Shown piece by piece: positions 24,901 through 38,381 of a DNA stretch of 64,000 nucleotides (its first letter is position 1; every line of letters begins with the position of its first letter). The DNA lies in contig CM102287.1 in the NCBI GenBank assembly GCA_046563655.1, positions 4,526,001 to 4,590,000 of the forward strand. Reading direction: 5' to 3'. Position numbers and translations under genes: made by a program. The notes under the pieces were generated by a model that worked only from the letters and a program-made list of their open reading frames with translations, was not told the origin of the DNA and did not search any database. The DNA comes from Yuukianura sp. NJ FZ-2021 (Eukaryota).

Positions 24901-26671
24901 CGGGGAATGTTTCCTCGAAACTTTAGCTACCCGCTATGTTGGAATTTTGCAAATTGCGTTATTCCGCTGGTTTTCCCTCCATACTTTCGAAATTAAACAA
25001 ATTACAGATTTTTGGGTGTACTCTTTTCCCTGGCGCACACGGTATAAATCAAAATCTGTAATAAAATAATATAAAAATATAATATAAATAAAATGTTAAT
25101 TTACTATTTTCTTTCTTTAGGGGCGTGAATCAGTTTGGAACTATTTCTCAAGCATTTTCGTTGACGCAGACGCAGTTCCAGCCGTTTCCGGTCTACGATC
25201 ACTTTGATTCCTTCGTTCGTGGATTAGCAACACAAGACTGTCAGCGATTCGACAACTTTTTCAGTGATCACGTGAGTTCATTCTTTTTTATGTTGAAAAT
25301 TCGCAGCAATTTGTTCAATTTCACTATTTTTTCAAATTCAATTTTCCAAAATTTCAAAAATTCAGAATTTTTCAATGTTTTCTAGCTTACCAAGCATCTA
25401 TTTCAAGGAAGCTCTCAATTTGGCCTTGACCTTGTAGCACTGAATATTCAACGCGGAAGGTAATTCTTTAACTCATTTGTGATTTTACTAATTTTGCATG
25501 CGTTAATTAACTTTAAAGATTAATTAATTGAATTTGTAGAGATCACGGATTGCCAAGCTACAACGACTGGAGAGAAGTTTGCAGTTTGCCGAGAATTAAC
25601 TCATGGGACGATTTGCGTGACCACTTGACCCCACACGTATGACCTTTCAAATAACATGTTTATTATTATACAAATTTAATGTTTTTATATGTAACTTATT
25701 AATATTATTATATTATTGTAGGCTGCAAGCAGAATTGAGCGTCTGTATCAGTCCGTGGATGACATTGACTTGTACGTGGGAGCTGTTGGAGAGAAGCCGC
25801 TTCAAGACGCAATTCTTGGACCAGTTTTTCTTTGTCTCGTTGGAGATCAGTTTGCTCGTCTTCGACGTGGCGACAGATTCTTCTATGAAGAAAAAACTGC
25901 CAGATTTACCGAAGGTAACGTAAAAAAACTCAAATTTTTTTGAAATTTTTAATGTTAACAAATTGCACAATTGCAGGTCAGCTTGATCAAATTCGAAAAG
26001 TGAGCTTAGCTCGCGTACTTTGTGACAATTCAGATGAAATTACAGTTATCCAGCCCCTTGTAATGCAAAAAGCGTCCGTTCTGTAAGTATCTACAAACAC
26101 GATATACTACAAGCAAACACAAACTTTCCGTTTTCGTCTATTTTTGAAGAAATAATTCACAAACTTTTGTTCGGATTTCAGAAATCGTCGTCTCCCATGT
26201 ACAACCGATGCCATTCCAGCACTTGACATGTCATTTTGGCGCGAATTTCGTCAAGTCCCGTTTCCATCCAATACTGCTTCCCCCAACCGTCAAGTTTTCC
26301 GCCCCCCAACAGCCCCACCCAATCGTCAGCAATTCGTTCCCGCCAATCCGCCTCCGAATCGTCAACAATTCGTTTCCCCAAATCCTCCTCCGAATCGTCA
26401 ACAATTCGTTTCCCCAAATCCTCCGCCGAATCGTCAACAATTCGTTTCACCGAATCAACCTCCGAATCGTCAGCAGTTCGTTTCCCCCAATCCTCCTCCC
26501 CAACAATTCGTTTCGCCCACTGCCTCTACCGGTCGTCAAATTATCCGACCAATCAACATCACGGTTCGTCAGCCAGCCCAAACGTCACCGAATCTAAGTT
26601 TCACAACATTTGTAGATCAATTTCAACAACCGCAACGCCAATTCCAGTCCCAAAGTCGACGCTCTTTTTGA
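21919..26671 (+). CDS. Secreted animal heme peroxidase (peroxinectin/chorion peroxidase-like) with N-terminal clip domain and Pro/Gln/Asn repeat tail
   Basis: Signal peptide [26 protein letters not shown]; clip pattern [43 protein letters not shown] (distal His); [16 protein letters not shown] (proximal His); [23 protein letters not shown]. Confidence 0.93.
24828..25042. mobile_element. 215-bp Tc1/mariner-type MITE in a peroxidase intron
   Basis: 28-bp TIRs CAGTGTGCGCCAGCGAAAAGAGTACACC and (reverse complement) CCGTGTGCGCCAGGGAAAAGAGTACACC with 2 mismatches; TA flanks both sides. Confidence 0.85.
26310..26520 (+). repeat. Coding 36-bp tandem repeat ([12 protein letters not shown], about 5 copies)
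   Basis: CCGAATCGTCAACAATTCGTTTCCCCAAATCCTCC-like units at 36-nt period in the last peroxidase exon. Confidence 0.92.
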
Positions 26672-28107
26672 AACTTTTCAACAAAAGATGACAATGTTCG
26701 ATAGACTGATCCAACAAGAACGTTTGCATCACTAGTGCCCCAAAATCCTACAAAGCAGACATGACGCAAAAATCGCTGAACCCGGAGACGCTTCAGTACT
26801 TTTTATAAAAGAAAAAACGATTTATGACTTTTTTTTTAAATCTCTATCAAATGTGTGAAATCTGTGTCAATAAAAGCCGTTACGAAACTGCCACGTCGCC
26901 AGCCCAAATCCTCCCCCCTCTGCGGACCTCGTCGTGAGCTTTCCATCACAACTCACAACCGCCAATTTTTAAACAGAAATTTTAAACATGAAAGCGTTTT
27001 ATCTGTGAGCGGGCGGGTAACGAAACGTAACTTTGTCAACCAAAATGTTTCCCACCGCAGCAGTGTAACTAAATTTCGAGTGGCGTCGAACCTTACCGTA
27101 GTTCACACGACTTGATCCGTCTGTTTTACTGTCATTTTTTCCTTCCTTGACCTTTGACCTTGTGACTTTTGACTCTACATTTTAACAAGAGCTGAACGAA
27201 CAAACGCCACTTTTAAAAAATCCGCCTGTCCGAACTGCTCTGGTCAAAAGCGAATCTAACTTCTGGATCTTCTGGAAGAAACCACGCGGCTGGAAGCGGC
27301 GTGACTCAGCCGCTGTCACACCTTACATAAGCCAGGAACTTATGCCGAGGTGTGAAAGAGATTAATGAAATCCGTGACTAATTAATTGATGTAGGATGAT
27401 TAATTGGTGTGACTGATGAGTTTGTTCCAGATTGAAAGTCTGAGTGTGACTCTATTTTTCCAGGAGGGGGATACAGAGATGGCTTCTGGAATCTCCAGTG
27501 AGTAGGAAGATCCTTGCACTGAAAAGCCAGTAGCACCTGTACAGGTGCTGAAAGCGATCTAAAAGCCACAGTTTGAGTAGAGAACACAATAGAAACAAGA
27601 TTCAATTCATCTATTTACCTTTGGATCCAATCAACGACCTACTTTACACTTGTCTTCAACAAACCACTCACGTACAAAAACTTACATTTCAAATCCAACT
27701 GGAAGTATTTGCAGCCAATTGATGAACAATTGGTGGAAAATGGTCCAGGAAGAGCCAAAATCATAAAGATAAAGGCTAGAACCGATTTGTTCCAAACGCT
27801 GATTACACAAAAACTTATCATCAAACTTGCAAACTTTTGCAAACTTTGTCTCTTGTTCTAAAAAAATGAATTGGAAAGAATTGAATTCCAAGTGCAATGC
27901 ACTTTGTGAATTTAAACAATTTCTAAAATGAAAACGTGGCCAATGCAGTTTTAAAGAAGAAATTTTGAAAAATGACCAATTCAGTTTTGAATTTGAACAA
28001 TTTGGAAAAAAAAAGAGTGAATTTAATAAAAACAAAGGTTTATGTGCTACGACTAGAGATTTTTTTTTGGGTTTGGACGATGGCGGTAGAGCAGGTCAAC
28101 ATAGGGG

Positions 28108-30127
28108 TCACCCGTAAAATGGAAAAAGGTCAATGACCTTAGGATTTTCTTCGGAGAGGTCAGAGGTCAGCGACTTCAGAATTTTTCTGGAGACAGGTCT
28201 TCGGTTTTATTTAAGTTGGAGTCGACGCTATCCGTTTCAGTATAAGATTTCCGACTTTCACTTGTGTCGGAAGCAACAATCGGTAAATTGGGATCGACGT
28301 CTTCGCGTTTCCGAAAGAATGCAAGAAATCTGGAAGAAATTTTAAGCGTTTTGTTGAGACAGAAAATTTTTGATTTTTGAGAGTTTTGAAAAGATTTACG
28401 TGAAGACGAGAAGCGCTGGAATTGTTACTGCCGCTGAGAATAAAAAGAAGGCTCCTGGAAGCGTGTACAGTGTTGCACTGTAAATGGCATTGTAAATTGG
28501 AGACGCTGGAAGTGGAGCGATTGTGTCCAGCGTTCCTACTACTGAATTGACCTTCCCTGTCTCATGTCTTGGAATGATTTTGGATATCATTGACCTCGAA
28601 GCGATGATCATCGTACCGTTGAGGATGTCCACTAGTGGAGCTGTTCCAAATAAAAAATCAGCGATTATTTTGAAATCAGCGATTAAATATTAACTCTCGA
28701 TAGGTTAGGAGTTTCTAAGTTACCTAAATACATCATCCAGTCTCTGTCAGCGAAGCAGTAAATGAAGCTTGAAGCGATTTGACTGATGGACGACAGTACA
28801 CCGATGATGGCGTCTGAGAGCTTCATGCCTTTAGACAGCAATCCGACACTCGTCACTCCTCCAATAAAAGCAATGATCATTCTATACGTATTGTAGTAGC
28901 CGAAGATCGCAGCGTTCCAGCCCAACTGCGCTCTTGTGAAGTTGTAGATGATACTTTCTTCAGCTAACCACGAAGGAATTGATATTAGTATTAGTTAAGT
29001 TAATTGATTAAGTAAATTAAGTGACTACTAATTGATAGCTTTACCTTGCATTGGCATCATGGTGGACAATAAGGCAATGACCAATAGGAACAGTCGAGCA
29101 CGGTCGCCATTTTTACGTTTTCGGACAAACGCTGCCGCGGAGTCTTTGAGATGTCCCAGGTCAAAAACGTCTTTGAACGCTTCCCATTTCGTTTTGTCTT
29201 TCGTCTTTTCCTTGTCTCGTGTGTCCTGGATTGTAAACATTGCCCAGACAAGGCCAAAGATATCCAGTGCTCCAGCGGCACCGAAGATTGCATAATAGCC
29301 CAGTCCTGCCCGTGACATTTCACCTCCAAGGGCCGACCCAAGAGACTTTCCAAACGTTCTGACAGCAGTGGCCATGCCCATCTTCAGCGTTCGATCTGCA
29401 ATTGAGGTGGTGTCGGCAACGTAACTGTAGATGACCATACTGATGGCTGTTCTGGATCCAGTGAGGGCCACTGGAAGTGACGACAAGAGAACGACAGTCT
29501 CGCAGTTCCAAGATTCAAAATAGGTGGCCATGATCAAGAGGATGTATCGAACGATGTATCCAAAGATGGAGCAGAGGTATGGAATCTTCCGACCGTAAGT
29601 GTCACTGTAAGAAGAATCGTTAGGTAAGTAATTAGTTAATTGTGGCATTAAATTGTATTTTAGATTTGTAGACTCCAGTACCTCCAGGCTCCAAGGAACA
29701 AAACGTAGAGAATCGGAAACGAATTGTCGATAACCGAACTCCAAATCTTTATGTCGGAAACAACTTTCTGAGCAGCCTTTTCCTCATCGGTCCTAAGAAC
29801 AGGAAGTAATCGAGGATTAACATTAGTTCACTTTGTAATCAATTAGTTTCTGGAGGTGGATAAGGTGAGTGACCTCTTGACTTACAACTCTTCACCCCTT
29901 TCCTTGTTAATAAGATCCGTACAGAAGGTTTCATTGTACCCCAAGTTGACATTACAGGCCTTGTACAGCATGAGATTGGACAGAAGAAGGTTACCCATGA
30001 ACGACGCTGTCATGTGGACCAGCAGCGATGGCTCAATCGTAATTAGTCCAGCGATTCGTTTTGTCTTGGACCAAGGTGTCGATTTGGGTCGCGATTCACC
30101 CCCATTTGAGTACTTACTTTCTCCCAT
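28108..30127 (-). CDS. SLC46/proton-coupled folate transporter-like MFS protein, multi-exon
   Basis: ITIEPSLL...LYKACNVNLGYNETFC, YSDTYGRK, YSYVADTT..RTLKMG, RSMISKII...ETGKV and PIYNAIYSATL..LPGAFF, with many hydrophobic helices. The last exon was read by hand to TGA at 28110-28108. Confidence 0.85.
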
Positions 30128-31201
30128 TTAAAAATTCGTTAATTTTTCCTACTGAAAAAGCTCTAAATTTTCACAGTTATCCGGAACCGATAATTTGCCT
30201 TTGGAGTCCAAATAAGTTTGGACAACTAATTTTTTGTTTTTGATTTTTTACAACCGATTAGCGTTGCTGTTATTTTGACTGAAAATTGTTTGAGTCCTGA
30301 CAAATCGCAATCGGGATTTTTCTGGACTACGATTTTCCAGCCACTGTCGATTCCCTCGACAAAGGACAAAGGAAATTCGTAAAAACAAAGTAAAACTCTT
30401 AAATAATTTGTAGTTAATCACAATCAGTGTCTACGTGATACCACAATCACACTAATCAGCGCTAATTCTTATAATTCCAGGTCTGGAGTACTTAATCTCA
30501 CCGCCAGATGCAAGCGTGCAAACTCAAAGCGTCGGGGTCAGGTTTAATGACGGGGTCAAGTTATGCTGAAAGCTGAATCAAGTTAAACATCTCACAATGG
30601 TTTTTTTATACAATGTCTGCTCCTGGACCACCTCGGGCAAGAGTCGTGGACAATACCATAATGCTTCATCATGCCCGCAATTTAAAAAATGTAAGCTAAT
30701 CATGATGAAAGCTAAACATATTCAAGTTGGTAGCGATTTGACCGGTTTAGACGACCAACGTCACTTATTAAGTCAGTTTTTCTAGATTTGGTCCAGTTGA
30801 GGTGACATGAATCCATGTTCAATCCGAATCCAGTCGTCAATCGTCATTGTCGACGCTTCAATTGTCCCGGATGCAAAGCAGGACAGAGGGATGAAACTGG
30901 AAGGTGTAAATCAGCACTAAATGATGATAAAAGCTAATTAATTGACAAGACTTGGACAACGACGATGACAGTGAGGTAAGCAGCTTGCAGTGGCGACAGT
31001 AGCCGGTTTTCATTGCCAGTAATTTCTACGTCGCTGGGACAAGGTATGACAACTACCGTCATTCAGCTACTTTTAAAAGTCAAATCTTGTCATCTGAAAA
31101 TGTCAAACCAGAAGTTCCAGAATAAAAGATTCCTTTTTATTGCAGATTCTATTCGTGGAAGATTTCTGCAACTGATAAATGAACTGAATTCCTGACACGG
31201 C

Positions 31202-31589
31202 TGTAACGTCGCACGCTACGGAAAACACTGAAAAATGGCCTCAGCCACGCCTCTCCTCAGACTCCGTCACTGAGTCTACAGACTCATGCCCAGTGAAACG
31301 ACAATAACCTCTGCAGAACTCCCGTGAACACTGATCAGCGTAAATAAATATATATCATATATTTATTCGCTGATAAATAAAATATATACAAAAATAAACT
31401 GCTCGTGGCAGAAACACCATACTCTAATATGCTCTCTGAGCGTAAACCAAATCCAGACTGAGCTCTAAGCTCACACTACACACTAAACTATACACGACAC
31501 GCTCGCTCTCAAATCTCCCTCCTCTAACTCTCTGCGTCTCACTCTAACCTAAACCCTAAACCCTACGTGGCGGGAACCGGGGCACTTCA
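31202..31589 (-). repeat. 3' LTR
   Basis: TGTAACG...CACTTCA on the + strand; no differences from 34144-34531 seen by eye. Confidence 0.97.
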
Positions 31590-32679
31590 CCTTCCCCTCT
31601 CGAAGGAACGGCACGGCGGGGATAACCTCGTCTGGCGTTCCAAAACTGCCGAGTGAGCCCGGTTGCCTCTGATCTCCTCTTCTCCGGTCGCCATTTCCAG
31701 CGTCACCAGCGTCATCATCATCCTCATCGTCGTCATCATCACCAGCGGAGTCTTCATCATTGCTCCCGTCATCTGAATCGGAGTAGTCCTCGTGGAACCC
31801 GTCATCGTCGTCGGAGTCTTCATCTCTGAATTTTGGCCAACTTTTTGACCTAATCGAAGCCAACGCATTGGCTCCCTTCGAGTTAAACAAGTTCATGGCT
31901 CCACCCTCCTTCACTTTACGGGACAGTGAGACCCACCAGCCATAACTTTGTACTTCATCTGAAACGCTCAAAGCGATTCCTTTCATCAAAACATTTCCTG
32001 TTTTCCTCTGAATCTCGCTCCTAGCCATTCCTACTAGCACAGCGATGGCTTCTTCTTCCTTCATCAGCTCGCCATTTGGAGCTTGAGTAACACTGCGAGC
32101 TAGTACTCGTGTGAGACCTTCCCAGTGCTCTCTATTTTCTTCTTTCTTCTGTTCATCTTCTAGAGCTAGAGTAACGCTGAGAGCTAGTACTCTTGTGAGA
32201 CCTTCCCAGCGCTCTCTGGAGGAACGTCGGATGATTGAGGCCTCGTTTCCGTACGTCTCTCCGAATGTGGATCCCGCAGTCTCCATCATTCTTCTTAAAG
32301 CCAACTTCATGGCTTTCTGCATTAGGATACCAACTTCTTGGCCATCCTCTTCGTTTTTCTTTTTCTGGATCCTCGGAGTGATGAAGGAAAGTACGGCCAG
32401 TGCACGTGACCAGTATCTGCCTTCGGGGGAGTGGTGACCATAATCACAATCTTCATCTTCTGACACTGAACTCCATGAGAACGCGTCCGCTTCCACAGAA
32501 ATCCAGACATCTTGATGTCTAACTCCCCATAACTTAATCTCCGGATCCTCCACCATCACTTCATTTAAGTTGCTACAACGCAACTCCTTCCCACTACTAC
32601 GTCCACAATGAACCACTTCGTCCCTTTTTAAATTTTGATTAGGGTGAATGATGGACGAACTGTCATTCCCCTGCTTCAG
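31549..32679 (-). CDS. ORF2 of the LTR element (-1 frame relative to gag); unknown product
   Basis: Frame is open from the slippery site (LKQGNDSSIIHPNQNLKRDEVVHCGRSS...) to the stop at 31549, 376 aa. No DTG/DSG, YxDD, RNase H or integrase HHCC/DDE motif is recognisable. Confidence 0.65.
   Translation of the reverse strand: MKQGNDSSSIIHPNQNLKRDEVVHCGRSSGKELRCSNLNEVMVEDPEIKLWGVRHQDVWISVEADAFSWSSVSEDEDCDYGHHSPEGRYWSRALAVLSFITPRIQKKKNEEDGQEVGILMQKAMKLALRRMMETAGSTFGETYGNEASIIRRSSRERWEGLTRVLALSVTLALEDEQKKEENREHWEGLTRVLARSVTQAPNGELMKEEEAIAVLVGMARSEIQRKTGNVLMKGIALSVSDEVQSYGWWVSLSRKVKEGGAMNLFNSKGANALASIRSKSWPKFRDEDSDDDDGFHEDYSDSDDGSNDEDSAGDDDDDEDDDDAGDAGNGDRRRGDQRQPGSLGSFGTPDEVIPAVPFLREGKVKCPGSRHVGFRV
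31590..31600 (-). other. Polypurine tract
   Basis: AGAGGGGAAGG immediately 5' of the 3' LTR on the minus strand. Confidence 0.88.
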
Positions 32680-32685
32680 TTTAAA
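32617..32685 (-). promoter_or_regulatory. Programmed -1 ribosomal frameshift signal (slippery heptamer plus pseudoknot)
   Basis: T TTA AAC (32685-32679), 6-nt spacer, stem 1 AGGGGAATGA/TCATTC(A)CCCT, and loop TTCGTCC pairing with GGACGAA 17 nt after stem 1. Confidence 0.8.
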
Positions 32686-33842
32686 TAATTTGAAGCATGT
32701 CCAGCGTCTCCATACTCTCCGTACGCTTCCCCAAAATCATCATCTTCTGGAGCTTCCTCGGAAACTCTCCTTCCGAAAGATCCAAGTGCCCAATCCACTG
32801 GCGTAGGACACTGATACTGTTTATGGCCACGCCCACCACATCTGTAGCAGTAGACGCCATCTGCATGTCTATTCCTGTTCTGACCTCTGTCTGAGTCATG
32901 ACCTTGACTCCTCTTGCCACGTGGAGGCATCTCAATTTCACCTCGCCCTCCACTGTCTTCGATTTCCACTTCTGCTTCTTGACCTTTACAGCACAAGGTC
33001 ACTTCATCCTCATCTTCAACCTCATTGGAGTCAATTTCCTTGACTCCCTGCTCATTTCCCTCTTTTTCATCTGATACTGTTTCCTTTTCAGTATCACTGT
33101 CATCTTTCTCCTCTTCAGTTACCTTCACAATCGGAGGTAATTGATTTTTAATTTTATACATCTCATCCTCAGCACATAAATTAGAGTGTGCCACTCTGCA
33201 CGCTACGAATAATGACTCAACAGTATCGTAACTGTTGGTTCCCAATGCTGTCCGTAGCCTTGGGTATAGAGCAAGCCTTGCTCTCAACACTGAGTCAGCC
33301 TCTGACTCACTCGGATAAATTAATCTTGAACAACGCACCATATCATAAATGAAATGTTCAACTGGTTCAGTTACTTGCTGAACCCTCGTGTGCAAAAGAC
33401 GTGTGCGCTCGGCCACGTCGATCCAATTATCATACCGATTGGTAAATTGGATTTTGAAGTCATCCCAGTCTGTACATGTCAATAGGATATGATCCAGCCA
33501 TGGATGCACATCAGACGGTAACACCGTCTTAATCAAATAGAGATACTGTGTGTCAGCATGTCCTTGAGCAGAAAAATATCTCTCTACCTCCACGAGGTAG
33601 CCTGCTGCTGACATCTTCTTCGTATCAAATTTGGGTGGTGGTAGTTTAGATGAGAGGGACGTGAACTTCACGTTCTTTAATGCATTGATCAACGCCTGAG
33701 TCTGGTCCGCCCCTCCTCCTGGAGACACCGCAGCGACTCCCTCTTCAATTTTTGGAACTAACCTCTGTTCCACGCCGCGCACGGCTTTAGCCACCGCAGT
33801 AGCTACTAATCGATCAATATCCTCTTTTGTATATGTCGTCAT
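32676..33842 (-). CDS. gag: Ty3/gypsy-type Gag (capsid plus CCHC zinc knuckle)
   Basis: PPKFD...YLVEVERYF...W...DWDDFKIQFTNRY...Q...EPVEHFIYDM (retrotransposon capsid pattern) and CYRCGGRGHKQYQCP (CX2CX4HX4C). Confidence 0.92.
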   Translation of the reverse strand: MTTYTKEDIDRLVATAVAKAVRGVEQRLVPKIEEGVAAVSPGGGADQTQALINALKNVKFTSLSSKLPPPKFDTKKMSAAGYLVEVERYFSAQGHADTQYLYLIKTVLPSDVHPWLDHILLTCTDWDDFKIQFTNRYDNWIDVAERTRLLHTRVQQVTEPVEHFIYDMVRCSRLIYPSESEADSVLRARLALYPRLRTALGTNSYDTVESLFVACRVAHSNLCAEDEMYKIKNQLPPIVKVTEEEKDDSDTEKETVSDEKEGNEQGVKEIDSNEVEDEDEVTLCCKGQEAEVEIEDSGGRGEIEMPPRGKRSQGHDSDRGQNRNRHADGVYCYRCGGRGHKQYQCPTPVDWALGSFGRRVSEEAPEDDDFGEAYGEYGDAGHASNYLN

Positions 33843-34131
33843 GGCACTAGCACTGGCAGATGCTTGTACTACTGTAACTGATGAAGGAGAGACACTGGAT
33901 GCGTGTCTACTTCTTAAATTATGACCTTCAATGTCCGGAGAAAGACTTCTGTCTTATGAACTTGAGTGAGCCACCACGGTGGCATAATAATCAATTAGGG
34001 AGCTGTGTGGAACGGCTCCGTTACGTAATGTAGAGAGAAAGTTACCACGGCAACTTTGTAATTTCACAATTTTTTATGTCACTCGACCCATGACCTCTTC
34101 ACTCGAATGTCGTCACTGTAAGCACTCACAA

Positions 34132-34141
34132 ACGGTCGCCA
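34132..34141 (-). other. Primer binding site
   Basis: TGGCGACCGT, 2 nt after the 5' LTR, is complementary to a tRNA 3' end ...ACGGTCGCCA. As recalled, this is the tRNA-Arg type PBS of 412/mdg1-group elements. Confidence 0.8.
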
Positions 34142-34143
34142 TC

Positions 34144-34531
34144 TGTAACGTCGCACGCTACGGAAAACACTGAAAAATGGCCTCAGCCACGCCTCTCCTC
34201 AGACTCCGTCACTGAGTCTACAGACTCATGCCCAGTGAAACGACAATAACCTCTGCAGAACTCCCGTGAACACTGATCAGCGTAAATAAATATATATCAT
34301 ATATTTATTCGCTGATAAATAAAATATATACAAAAATAAACTGCTCGTGGCAGAAACACCATACTCTAATATGCTCTCTGAGCGTAAACCAAATCCAGAC
34401 TGAGCTCTAAGCTCACACTACACACTAAACTATACACGACACGCTCGCTCTCAAATCTCCCTCCTCTAACTCTCTGCGTCTCACTCTAACCTAAACCCTA
34501 AACCCTACGTGGCGGGAACCGGGGCACTTCA
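34144..34531 (-). repeat. 5' LTR
   Basis: Direct repeat of 31202-31589 at offset 2942. Confidence 0.97.
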
Positions 34532-35502
34532 CGGCATGATGACGAAGTACGACACACGACGCTCCAGTGTCATGCCAAAATCAAAACCATGACGTGACGC
34601 AACATCTGAGAGCTGAATAGGCAGTAAATCATGCTACGCAGTCTTTCCATTCCTATGTACGCCGCTCTCAAGTGTCACCTTCGACTTGGCCTAGTTTCGC
34701 TTCTTCCTTGACTTTATTTCGGAAGAAGACTCTAGAACACAAGAAGTTACATTTTGGCCCTAATTACATCCGAGAATGGGGAAGAGTCTGGAGGGGTTGG
34801 CACCTCTTTAAGTGTTATTGTTTTGGCATTGGGAAGGCTGACTGACACAGCAGTGATGAGTGGTAAGTTGCAAGTTTATACTTTAGCAAAAAGAGAATGT
34901 TGATTCATCGTGTCTGCCAAAACTTTGCTCTTCTGTGACTGGCTAGATTTGGGGGATGGTGCGACGTCGACGGCCTTTTGTATGCCAACACTAACGATGA
35001 CTGACTCGTTCGCATCAACCAACACACCAACTCGTGATTATTGGGAAGCTCCCGACTCTAGGGCATCCTGACGTGGACCGCGCCGTGATCAATGACTCAA
35101 GATTATGGCCTGACTGTTTCGCAGAACTACGCCTGTGTAAAAACCTAGTAACGCCACGAGGGATCACCAAAGTGGGATGAGTTTGGCCTGTTGTTTCCAT
35201 TGTTATAACTTTACGCTTCATACAACTACACGATTCAATTCATTCTTTCTTTTAGTTCAACAAAAACCGGCGGCAAGAGCACAAGGAACCCGGCAGACAC
35301 TCAAAGCAGTTCAAAACTTGACAGCAACGAGAGCAAGAATCCTCTTCATCATCAATTTAAAGCCGTCCGAGCAGTGGAATCTTTTATAGACAATTAAGTC
35401 TGGTGCGAAGAGAAGAGTCTTCATCAATCTCAAGAAAAGTTAACACTTTTTTGTGCTAAACTGGAGTCGGAGACGAGTGACCTGTCGTCTAATAGACGAG
35501 AC

Positions 35503-38381
35503 ATGTCAGCAACTTCAGCACTTCTAGAAACTGGACATCCAACGGTACCGCAGACCGAGAAGATTGTCCAGAAGAGACAAATGGAACGCCTGCCTTTTGT
35601 TCTTCTTCTGTCTGGACTCATTGCCCTCGTCTTATCCGTCATCCTTGGCTGGGTCCTTGTCCCCAACTACATTCACAATCAAATCCAACAGGTAACCATG
35701 ACAACTCAAAATTTTATGACTCAAAATTGATAAGTTTTGTAAAATTTACAACTTTGACTTTTGTAAAATTGACGTAGTATTTTGGCTTTTTGTAAAATTG
35801 ACGTCTTTTGACTTTTGTAAACTTGATGACTTTTGGGTTCTGTAAAATTGCACGTTTTTACTTTTGTAAAATTCAAATTGACAACTTTTTACTTTCTGTC
35901 AAATTGACAACTTTTTACTTCCGCCAGGGTCATCATATTGATAACTTTTCACTTGTCATCTCTATTTCAATGCCTCCATCTAGCAACTTTGTCAAAACGT
36001 CAAGCGTCGTCAACTGTCAAAAGTGACACTTCACTTGACATTTCGACACAGTTTTGTTTACTTTTCAAAATTGTGTAATTTTAAACCAATGCAATTAATC
36101 AGGTACTGATTGACGGGTTTACAAATTACAAATTAGCGAAAGTTAATCGAAAGTTGCGAAAAACTGTGATAGCGTCTCTTTTCCCACATTTCTGGAAGGC
36201 AATAACGTTTTTTTTTGTGCGAAATTTTCGCAATAAACTTTCTCTCGAGTTATTTGAATTATTTACGAAATTCTCAAGGGAAGGGCATACTACAGGTAGA
36301 AAAAAGTGGCGTGATCTAATTGTCTGGTGATGCCTTACGTCACATCAGTTTATATCCGCAATTTGCTGAGTTTGGATTTACCAAAAACGATTGCAAAAAA
36401 ATAACAACCGTAATTACTGTAATTAAATATGCATTTTTCCCATTTGAAACGTGTTTTACAGCAAGTGCGACTCGAAAATGGAACTACGACGTACAGCAAG
36501 TGGAAGGACATTACCGTTCCCATCTTCATTTCAATACGACTCTTCAATGTTACGAATGCCGACGACGTTGCAGCTCAAGGTCACAAACCAGTTCTGGCAG
36601 AGCGCGGACCCTATGTTTACCAGTAAGCAAATCATCACGGATCTGCTCATGCGCAATAACTTGAAGTCATAATCAATTGGAATTTACCACTTAAATTAAC
36701 AATTAAGTGTCAATTAAACTTTTAATTTTAGGCAGAAACGCGTCAAGACTGATATTGAGTTTGACCTTGATCAGGACACGGTCAGTTCTAGGCAGTTTGT
36801 GACATATCACTTCCGACCTGACATGTCCAATGGAACCGAAGATGACATGATCACTACCCTCAACTTGCCAATTCTGGTGAATTTTTGAAAAATTTTGAAA
36901 AATTTTTGAAAAAACGTTTTTAACTTTTTCGAATTTGAAACAGGGAATTGGGAAGATGGCGCAGAAGGCAAACCATTTCGTCAAGGTCATGCTGAACATG
37001 TATGCTGGAAGGTACGCTGAGACGCCATTTGTGACGAAGAAAGTTGGCGAAATTCTGTTTGACGGCTACTACGTTCCGATGATTGACAACCTTCAGAATG
37101 TGACCAGGAAGGCTATATTGCCCAACAGCACTTTTGGGTATTACTATGGCGTAAGTTCTGCGTGTGAACAACTAAACAACAACAAGTCAATTAAAGTTAA
37201 TTGAAAAGGGGAGGAGCTTAAATGAAAACTTGAATTTGCAGAAGAATGGAACCGATGACGGAGTGTATGAAATTCGAGCAGGAAAGAAGGAACCGTCAAG
37301 ATTTGGGGAAATTGTGTCATGGAATGGAAAGTCCGACTTGAATTGGTGGGGAACTTCAGGGGGCGGAGACTATTGCAACAAGATCAATGGGTCGGACGGA
37401 TCCATTTTTCCGGCATTTGTGAAAAAAGACCGAGTTGTTCGGATTTTCAGTTCCGACTTGTGCCGATCTCTGTACTTGACCTATGAAGATGAAAGTGAGG
37501 TCAAAGGGATTCCTGGGCTGAGATTTGCTGTTCCGAAGAGCATGTTGGCCGATCCGGTAACGAATCAGGACAATCGCTGTTTTTGTACAACTCCGGATCC
37601 AGTTGAGAATTGTCCGAAAGCAGGAGTAATTATGCTATCGGCATGTCGCAATGGTAATTTGCACTCCTGACATGAATCACGCTGATCTTGTAACCTTGTA
37701 TATTCTACTTTTATTTAACCAAACCTAATCTTTGACCTTTGGCATATTGACCTTTGACCTTTTTTAAAATTTCTTTGTGCTTTAGGTGCTCCAATTGTTG
37801 CTTCCACTCCACATTTCTTGGGTAAGTTTTTACTTACAGAAAAAATGCAACTTTTTTGAGAATTTTAGTTTATGAATTTTTTTTTCGATTCGCTTTTTCA
37901 GTTTTTAATTTTGATTTTCAATTGCAGACGGGGATGAAATGTACCTGAACCAATCCGTTGGTCTCTCACCGGACAGAACTCTTCACGAAACGTTTCTGAA
38001 TCTCGAACCGGTACAAATTTTAAAACTCAAAAACCGGTTTTTAGAATTTTTAAACATGAAATTCAATTGCTGTTTTTTTAGAACACGGGTCTAGTTCTGG
38101 AAGGACGAAAACGAATTCAGATCAATGTAGACACATCAGGATCCCACGGGTTGGACATTCTGAAGAATCTTCCGAATCAGCTTTTTCCTATTTTCTGGGT
38201 AGAAGAATCAGCGACTGTCACTGACGAAACAGTGGAAGCACTGGAATCAAAACTCCTATTTTCAATCAATGCGCTGAATATTGGAAAATGGGTATTCGTC
38301 ATCTTCAGTTGTTTCCTCACCATCCTTGGAGTAACAATCTTCTGTCTCAGAACTCGAAGAAAGCAGCGACTTTACCTATAA
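35503..38381 (+). CDS. Scavenger receptor class B / CD36 family protein, multi-exon
   Basis: N- and C-terminal TM helices; RLFNVTNADDV...KPVLAERGPYVY, KKVGEILFDGY, CNKINGSDGSIFP, FSSDLCRSL, NRCFC, GAPIVASTPHF and FPIFWVEE. Confidence 0.95.
35735..35925. repeat. Degenerate AT-rich minisatellite (TTTTGTAAAATTGAC-like units) in CD36 intron 1
   Basis: About 7 imperfect copies at roughly 25-30-nt spacing. Confidence 0.6.

Follow-up and report, generated by a model that had tools for sequence, protein, structure and literature searches.

How could an LTR element that holds gag and a second long open reading frame, with pol absent, have moved in an animal genome, and what does it make in the place of Pol? 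The question is raised by an element of 3,330 bp on the minus strand at positions 31202-34531 of the window, by which we mean the whole 64,000-nucleotide (64-kb) stretch of DNA that was analysed. We favour, with a probability of roughly 0.6, the reading that the element is an LTR retrotransposon of an animal genome, non-autonomous, recent and polymorphic, which makes Gag and a Gag-ORF2 fusion and is served by a helper in trans. All features given below lie on the minus strand, except the target-site duplication, which is unstranded.

The insertion and its empty site

The ends of the element are direct repeats of 388 bp with TG...CA termini, the 3' LTR (in element sense) at 31202-31589 and the 5' LTR at 34144-34531, which are identical at 388 of 388 positions. 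The 3' LTR contains an A/T-rich TATA-like tract and AATAAA, as seen in its twin copy. The element is flanked by a 4-bp target-site duplication, CGGC, whose left copy (31198-31201) and right copy (34532-34535) match base for base, in agreement with the empty-site joint described below. A PBS-like sequence starting with TGG (TGGCGACCG...) occupies 34129-34141, reading from 34141 downward, 2 nt past the 5' LTR. The matching tRNA may be an Arg tRNA; no tRNA genes were found in the 64-kb window. At the other end of the internal region, a polypurine tract of 12 purines (31590-31601) adjoins the 3' LTR and is traversed by ORF2. Identical LTRs, a perfect duplication, a primer-binding site and a polypurine tract had all been proposed in a first-pass annotation of this DNA, and all four stand. 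The internal region measures 2.55 kb, of which two long ORFs take up about 2.3 kb, and the sole Rfam match over 30800-35000 is a sub-threshold lncRNA in the LTR (E 0.52).

Independent proof of the insertion comes from contigs of three public runs of one sample (X1, X2 and X3), which join position 31198 directly to 34533. The joint omits 3334 bases, that is, the element and one CGGC, and agrees base for base with the sequence predicted for the site before insertion; both flanks of the empty site are covered by a single 16.5-kb contig in X3. The insertion is thus polymorphic. With identical LTRs and an empty-site allele, the element is recently inserted, mobile and still polymorphic, and the recent retrotransposition that had been put forward earlier is upheld. 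Since the insertion is polymorphic, the family may be active to this day and accessible experimentally.

The numbers of contigs that align to the stretch at 80-100% likeness are 205 for X1, 292 for X2, 69 for X3 and 53 for X4, a run from a second study whose contigs include pieces of LTR, gag and ORF2. The family looks small: across most of ORF2, contig depth sums to only about 1-2.5 times the flank depth, where depth does not equal copy number, and the earlier suggestion of an active satellite family is not borne out in the sense of a thriving one.

Gag and the junction with ORF2

The gag frame (32676-33839) runs uninterrupted from an ATG at 33839 to a TGA at 32678-32676, giving 387 codons plus the stop. 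The intact frame and the zinc knuckle first described for it hold, whereas the length of 388 amino acids does not. The CCHC knuckle (C-X2-C-X4-H-X4-C, Pfam PF00098) is formed by residues 330-345 (32805-32852). Against Pfam, Gag matches zf-CCHC at E 0.0023 and Retrotrans_gag at E 0.25, both short of the curated cut-offs. In Atlas, the clusters closest to it are Retrotrans_gag/Ty3_capsid (0.92-0.94), and the Arc capsid chain 7r1z is matched at E 0.62, each of these signals being weak singly. Together, Pfam, Atlas and the Arc chain give weak but concordant indications of a capsid protein. The single-sequence AlphaFold2 model (pLDDT 42) is uninformative and finds no Foldseek match in PDB at E <= 0.001. 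Word-index searches at near or longer lengths returned no relatives of Gag, and viral contigs returned no match.

The last codons of gag carry a canonical -1 frameshift signal. Our frame-aware scan of gag found two heptamers, of which T_TTA_AAC (32679-32685) is the one at the gag/ORF2 overlap; it has the X_XXY_YYZ form, lies in the zero frame directly ahead of the gag stop, and ORF2 is in the -1 frame relative to gag. Downstream of it, after a spacer of 6-7 nt that falls within the 5-9 nt at which a stable structure is looked for, an H-type pseudoknot is predicted at 32617-32672. Stem 1 comprises 9-10 bp with one bulge (32672/32671-32641/32642), and in stem 2 a loop heptamer (32653-32659) pairs with 32617-32623, 18 nt past stem 1. 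The pseudoknot score, a crude energy sum of the two stems that includes no pseudoknot penalty, is -25.1, a value reached by none of 500 shuffles (mean -1.0, minimum -20.1). Stem 2 is present in the centroid fold of the junction, and the pseudoknot-free minimum-energy fold is no better than that of shuffles (z 0.16).

Diverged relatives bear on the same structure. Their alignment ends at 32642; beyond it the 7-nt distal arm is retained, again at a distance of 18 nt, while the 18-nt loop differs and agreement at the 23 other positions shown is limited to 8 (manual count). Metagenome contigs contain no match to the 23-nt junction pattern. The frameshift into a second protein that had been claimed for this element is strengthened by the heptamer and the pseudoknot-like fold, although a Gag-Pol ancestor could simply have passed the signal on.

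ORF2 in the place of pol

From the slip site, ORF2 (31549-32685) adds 376 codons to Gag, which confirms the length previously given for a second frame open where pol is expected; stop to stop, the frame has 395 codons (31549-32736) and its first Met is codon 61. It passes through the polypurine tract and ends 41 nt into the 3' LTR. The product is predicted to be helical in its middle part, and has an in-frame duplication of 28 residues and a long acidic tail. The duplication corresponds to two 84-nt (28-codon) copies at 32053-32217 that are 83% alike, and the tail is encoded by an imperfect 33-nt tandem repeat at 31746-31824 (TRF period 33, 2.4 copies). Over two cores within ORF2, at about 31900-31936 and about 32214-32284, contig depth is 10-25 times that of the flanks, and two short patches of ORF2 are common to a far more abundant repeat.

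No protease, RT, RNase H or integrase family was matched by ORF2 in Pfam, nor was any matched by the 43 other-frame pieces of at least 35 codons from the whole element, whose only three hits are at chance level (E 0.026-0.083), in keeping with the original description of a frame that lacks these motifs. Because a pol domain is found in no frame, the element, as judged from its coding capacity, cannot be autonomous, and the proposal of non-autonomy is sustained. An env-like nature of ORF2 was also considered and rejected, as inspection of the translation by eye revealed neither a signal peptide nor a hydrophobic span of 20 residues. More generally, none of the Pfam, word-index, HMMER, Atlas, PDB or other-frame searches identified ORF2 as a remnant of pol or env.

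Searches for relatives of any other kind were equally negative. A full HMMER scan of 1.84 billion protein representatives, a word-index search at near lengths, Pfam as a whole and metagenome contigs yielded nothing for ORF2, and BLASTP against Gag and against itself gave no meaningful similarity. The best match among PDB sequences (E 0.32) falls on the acidic tail and is no relative. In Atlas no relative is found either; ORF2 has a recognition value of 1357 there, whereas 91 of 100 known proteins reach 2300. The single-sequence AlphaFold2 model has a pLDDT of 39 and is uninformative, with no Foldseek match in PDB at E <= 0.001. By these searches, which include the family and fold comparisons recommended at the outset, ORF2 is an orphan.

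The alternative that survives best takes ORF2 to be a passenger or relic in a pol-less derivative: a filler still open by chance, preceded by a frameshift signal left over from the Gag-Pol ancestor, so that the fusion would be produced to no purpose and mobilisation would depend on gag and the cis signals alone. On this view, the youth of the master copy and a purine-rich strand would explain why the frame is open. We regard this as a serious, though doubtful, account. Composition alone does yield long frames, the longest in 2000 dinucleotide-preserving shuffles having a mean of 126 and a maximum of 311 codons; however, the fully open internal stretch of 382 codons in ORF2 exceeds the longest frame in all 2000. 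Coding-like composition and periodicity also speak against filler, first-position G being 0.41 in ORF2 and 0.40 in gag, with the gag-like three-base excess present in five of six ORF2 sub-windows, as does the start of the open frame exactly at the conserved slip site.

Variation among sister copies cuts both ways. The tandem length variants within ORF2 (+33, +33 and +84 nt) are all multiples of three and keep the frame; they include one extra 33-nt unit in a sister contig (joint 31768>31736) and an additional 84-nt unit in another contig (joint 32162>32079). Among the 14 differences listed for ORF2, no stop is created. On the other hand, some contigs have single-base insertions at 32267 and 32268 that would break the frame there, and 12 of the 14 differences are non-synonymous. 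In a tool-chosen sample of 33 of more than 700 differences, ORF2 has 2 synonymous and 12 non-synonymous changes (3 of 14 at third positions), close to the synonymous share of 21% expected from random change, whereas gag is enriched for synonymous changes (8 against 11, with 10 of 19 at third positions). As the split in ORF2 is near the neutral expectation, no purifying selection on it is visible in these sequences. The passenger account is further favoured by the orphan status of ORF2, its low Atlas recognition and poor fold model, and the patches in common with an abundant repeat suggest a patchwork origin.

A second alternative is that ORF2 is a lineage-specific host gene transduced in the place of pol. 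The architecture fits, as gag is retained and pol is replaced by an insert in the same sense with coding-like composition, and there is a precedent in maize Bs1, an LTR retrotransposon cited for having transduced sequences of host genes (PMC7264820). Such an origin predicts homology to a cellular gene, but neither the protein libraries nor the 64-kb window, where ORF2 has no paralog, supplied one, and we consider transduction improbable. Still less probable is an accessory gene expressed alone, either from the internal ATG (codon 61, counted stop to stop) or from a spliced RNA: the ATG is early in the frame, and accessory ORFs are known in LTR elements (PMC7264820), but the slip site and pseudoknot fall precisely on the gag/ORF2 overlap. 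That the LTR pair or the open frame arose by chance or misassembly has nothing found in its favour and can be set aside, given an empty site that is identical in every base to the sequence predicted before insertion, the LTRs with their duplication, PBS and PPT, and pieces of the family in two studies.

Under the preferred reading of a helper-dependent element that makes Gag and Gag-ORF2, its RNA would be translated mainly into Gag, and a minority of ribosomes would shift -1 at the slip site to yield a fusion of about 763 amino acids, at exactly the position that Gag-Pol would have in relatives. The element would obtain reverse transcription and integration in trans, from an autonomous relative able to recognise its LTR ends and PBS. 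ORF2 would most likely enter particles via its Gag part, where it may serve as cargo, in helper recruitment or in interference.

A function of ORF2, and with it the idea of a satellite capsid, is something that we infer. In the full form of this idea, ORF2 would be a functional, family-specific protein that enters virus-like particles as part of a minority Gag-ORF2 fusion, in the slot of Gag-Pol, and the element would be a satellite that encodes a capsid and relies on an autonomous gypsy-like helper; a conserved frameshift signal would dose a non-enzymatic cargo, which might, for instance, capture helper Pol, compete with the helper or act on the host. We hold this to be unlikely, although, if true, it would be without precedent in animals. 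The usual view of non-autonomous LTR elements is of pared-down RNAs that depend on a helper for everything, whereas this one retains a capsid gene and the means of -1 frameshift dosing, the enzymatic cargo having been exchanged for an orphan protein. If borne out, it would provide a natural retroelement capsid that carries a non-Pol passenger, with a bearing on the repurposing of Gag-derived capsids such as Arc and PEG10, on satellites that exploit or interfere with their helpers, and on the origin of new proteins inside mobile elements. Should ORF2 prove to be neutral filler, what remains is a defective derivative of the ordinary kind, if a tidy one.

Comparison with known elements

The TR-GAG elements of plants are similar to the present element in being short, helper-dependent LTR elements with a PBS, a PPT and a gag ORF but without pol. 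In TR-GAG, gag is by definition the sole coding capacity. Here gag is followed by a further ORF of 376 codons, accessed through a -1 signal, and the genome is that of an animal. The non-autonomous LTR literature found by word search, as far as its retrieved text goes, places TR-GAG in plants only, and likewise contains no animal element with gag and a frameshift ORF of unknown kind.

Non-coding, non-autonomous LTR elements of animals share the LTRs, PBS, PPT, non-pol interior and mobilisation in trans. Mouse ETn, for example, is mobilised with the helper MusD. LARD and TRIM elements have no coding sequence between their LTRs, and the same is stated for 38 non-autonomous LTR families of Culex (PMC3286476). 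All of these lack coding capacity, in contrast to the intact gag and long second ORF found here.

Bs1 and the Gag-onc retroviruses resemble the element in that pol is replaced in the sense of gag, and in being defective, helper-dependent and productive of a Gag fusion. In Bs1, as in the acutely transforming Gag-onc retroviruses, captured cellular sequence is read as an in-frame Gag fusion. Their inserts are recognisably host genes, while ORF2 has no relatives in protein libraries, and their fusions are in frame, while here a programmed -1 shift would be required.

In its mode of expression the element resembles Ty3/gypsy Gag-Pol and PEG10: Gag has a CCHC knuckle, the slippery heptamer terminates gag, a structure follows downstream and, as we propose for this element, a minority trans-frame product is made. 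PEG10, unlike the element here, is immobile and lacks LTRs. The trans-frame parts of Ty3/gypsy elements and PEG10 contain at least a protease, whereas PR, RT, RNase H and IN are all unmatched here. Retention of -1 frameshifting by retrotransposon-derived genes is itself documented (PMC11299033). The PR-RT-RH-IN order and the grouping RT of the Metaviridae occur in no frame of the element, and because pol domains are absent from all frames, membership of Ty3/gypsy can be inferred only from gag and the style of frameshifting; a Ty3/gypsy-like ancestor is probable on this evidence.

What we have, then, is a pol-less element with an LTR and gag layout of known type. New here are its polymorphism, an orphan ORF2 that exceeds shuffles in open length and has coding-like periodicity, the placing of ORF2 in the -1 frame, and a frameshift signal whose distal arm is kept in a relative.

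Structure and polymorphism of the insertion

The window consists of animal DNA with long exons, and the Pfam families found across it include animal haem peroxidase, CD36, spectrin, MBT/SLED, the TRPM SLOG domain and SMC. Beside the peroxidase gene, three overlapping open frames of 149–171 codons (26148–26691, plus strand) lie over a Pro/Asn-rich repeat of ~30 nt, and one of them (26156–26671) has no Pfam match. The element occupies 3,330 bp of the minus strand (31202–34531), and lies between two exons recognized with Pfam, one of an MFS transporter on the same strand (29028–29783, minus) and one of the CD36 family on the opposite strand (37176–37670, plus). Its 5' LTR (34144–34531) and 3' LTR (31202–31589), each TG...CA, are the same at 388 of 388 bases. 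The target-site duplication CGGC is read from the sequence at both ends, a putative primer-binding site starting with TGG runs from 34141 downward, two bases in from the 5' LTR, and a PPT of 12 purines (31590–31601) adjoins the 3' LTR. No further copy of the element is present in the 64-kb window. Each LTR also carries two units of the plant-type, telomere-like CCTAAAC (~31548–31565, where they contain the ORF2 stop, and ~34490–34507), which is probably due to chance.

Four public sequencing runs match parts of the window, three (X1–X3) from one sample and the fourth (X4) from another study; at ≥80% likeness, 205, 292, 69 and 53 of their contigs, respectively, align to 30600–35100. Contigs of X1, X2 and X3 contain an empty-site joint, 31198>34533, in which 3334 bases are skipped, corresponding to the element plus one CGGC; the X3 contig, 16.5 kb long, reaches into the sequence on either side. 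Filled and pre-insertion alleles thus exist side by side, and together with the identical LTRs this shows recent, genuine transposition. The insertion is thus polymorphic, and the first-pass annotation, which had deduced recent retrotransposition from the identical LTRs, is supported on this point. X4 holds diverged pieces of LTR, gag and ORF2 (~92–97% alike) and an identical right-flank piece, and the family is therefore not confined to one data set. In the left flank (30637–30833), the runs with the empty site show several allelic differences, and an X3 contig from this flank has 18 differences and 16 gap letters over 598 bases relative to the window, which suggests that filled and empty alleles may sit on diverged haplotypes.

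Gag and the −1 frameshift signal

The gag frame extends from an ATG at 33839 to a TGA at 32678–32676 (minus strand). It is open throughout and encodes C-X2-C-X4-H-X4-C, as the first-pass annotation had it, at a length of 387 codons rather than the 388 residues then given. The evidence on its family appears concordant, each item being weak singly: Pfam returns zf-CCHC (E 0.0023) and Retrotrans_gag (E 0.25), both short of the Pfam cut-offs; the closest ESM-Atlas clusters bear Retrotrans_gag or Ty3_capsid (0.92–0.94; recognition value 3069); and residues 78–209 align with an Arc capsid chain at E 0.62. Just upstream of the frame, in the leader (33946–33953), 85 other letters replace six bases in relatives, in contigs of all four runs.

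ORF2, the second long frame, is shifted by −1 with respect to gag. A slippery heptamer, T_TTA_AAC (32685–32679), stands in the correct register, made up of the final two gag sense codons and the base before them, with the gag TGA directly after it. A tandem slip here would join the 387-residue Gag to 376 codons of ORF2, giving ~763 residues, close to the ~764 originally proposed for a fusion. Beginning 6–7 bases past the heptamer is a predicted stem of 9–10 bp with one bulge (32672/32671 to 32641/32642), and seven bases of its 11-nt loop (32653–32659) are exactly complementary to 32617–32623, 18 nt beyond the stem, a layout that is predicted to be that of an H-type pseudoknot. Its score of −25.1, a sum of stem-1 and loop-to-downstream duplex energies that omits a pseudoknot penalty and has meaning only against shuffles, was reached by 0 of 500 dinucleotide shuffles (mean −1.0, minimum −20.1). 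The pseudoknot-free fold of the junction is ordinary (z 0.16), with stem 2 as its centroid. Three contigs of X2 and two of X3 match the window from the end of gag to 32642 and then diverge; over the next 30 letters the 7-nt distal arm is intact in the same register, while the other positions agree at 8 of 23. The frameshift signal has therefore been kept in relatives whose downstream sequence is different. Our analysis shows a candidate −1 signal that is conserved, well placed and leads into a long, coding-like frame, which sharpens the earlier proposal of a frameshift into ORF2.

ORF2 as an orphan frame and its sister copies

From stop to stop, ORF2 spans 395 codons (32736 to the stop at 31549–31551, minus strand), reading through the PPT and ending 41 nt within the 3' LTR. 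Its internal stretch is open for 382 codons, against a longest frame averaging 126 (maximum 311) in 2000 dinucleotide-preserving shuffles. Like coding DNA, the frame shows a three-base periodicity, with G at codon positions 1/2/3 at frequencies of 0.41/0.24/0.26 (0.40/0.18/0.25 in gag); the first-position excess is present in five of six sub-windows.

ORF2 resembles no known protein in the collections searched. Neither ORF2 nor 43 other-frame pieces of at least 35 codons from the whole element match a Pfam family of protease, RT, RNase H or integrase. A word-index protein search gave zero matches for ORF2, HMMER against 1,835,955,588 representatives none at E ≤0.001, the ESM-Atlas no relative (recognition value 1357, within the range of shuffled sequences) and the PDB sequences no genuine match; comparison with the 64-kb window and with Gag revealed no paralog or likeness. 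A structure model from the single sequence is of low quality (pLDDT 39); it predicts helices at about residues 104–295 and finds no PDB match at E ≤0.001 with Foldseek. By direct reading, a basic start is followed by a helical middle, which contains an in-frame tandem duplication of 28 residues (84 nt, copies 83% alike), and by an acidic tail of ~60 residues that rests on a 33-nt repeat. An env identity was considered and rejected, the translation having no long hydrophobic span and so being unlike env.

Among relatives, we analysed the 33 best-supported of >700 differences in the two ORFs, a small and non-random sample, in which constraint is apparent on gag but not on ORF2. The 19 gag differences are 8 synonymous and 11 non-synonymous (10 at third positions), the 14 in ORF2 are 2 and 12 (3 at third positions), and neither ORF acquires a stop; ~21–22% synonymous would be expected of random change in either. 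Whether sister copies keep the frame, which the first-pass annotation named as a check, receives a divided answer. All three tandem length variants are multiples of three (+33 at 31768>31736, +33 at 31934>31902, +84 at 32162>32079), and a 1,142-nt X3 contig spanning 31572–32669, with 59 differences, two gaps and a +33 unit, is otherwise unchanged in net length; both count in favour of the frame, as does the lack of stops. Single-base insertions at 32267 and 32268 in some high-depth contigs and several skips of 79–122 bases count against it. The 12 non-synonymous changes in ORF2 lend weight to the main rival explanation, in which an inherited signal leads into ORF2 as young filler or a remnant in decay; we regard this explanation as rather unlikely.

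Over most of ORF2, summed contig depth is ~1–2.5 times that of the flanks (227–424 versus roughly 110–233 in X1), which suggests that ORF2-bearing copies are few, although depth is not a copy number. In both organisms, two short cores (~31900–31936 and ~32214–32284) have a depth 10–25 times that of the flanks and are bordered by loose ends on each side, and at 32223 and 32232 all covering contigs differ from the window; these cores are common to some much more abundant repeat.

Proposed mechanism and known systems

The element has all of its cis-acting sequences and an uninterrupted gag but no pol, and would be copied and integrated by the proteins of an autonomous relative, as an LTR retroelement without RT and integrase needs. 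A heptamer and pseudoknot at the end of gag yield a minority trans-frame fusion; the element may make Gag and a minority Gag–ORF2 fusion, which its Gag part would bring into particles, a reading to which we assign a probability of about 0.6. Within this reading, that ORF2 is a selected, functional cargo of a capsid-building satellite is rather improbable. The observation in the first-pass annotation is thus confirmed, and sharpened by strand, empty site, slip site and pseudoknot, while its interpretation is partly supported.

A word search of the literature found no animal element with gag and an unknown frameshift ORF, which does not prove absence. Ty3/gypsy and PEG10 likewise combine Gag with a −1 frameshift, but their shifted frame includes at least protease, whereas ORF2 has no protease match. 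Acutely transforming retroviruses carry inserts recognisable as host genes. They and Bs1, whose insert is described as recognisable host genes (PMC7264820), share with the element a foreign sequence in place of pol that is read with gag; a transduction of this Bs1 or Gag-onc type as the origin of ORF2 is nevertheless improbable, ORF2 having no relative in the protein collections searched or in the 64-kb window. Plant TR-GAG elements also keep gag and lose pol, and the literature located under that name concerns plants; in contrast to the element here, they are not known to have a second ORF. Animal non-autonomous LTR elements, such as 38 Culex families, similarly retain LTR, PBS and PPT and are mobilised in trans; these families lack coding sequence (PMC3286476), whereas the present element has both gag and ORF2.
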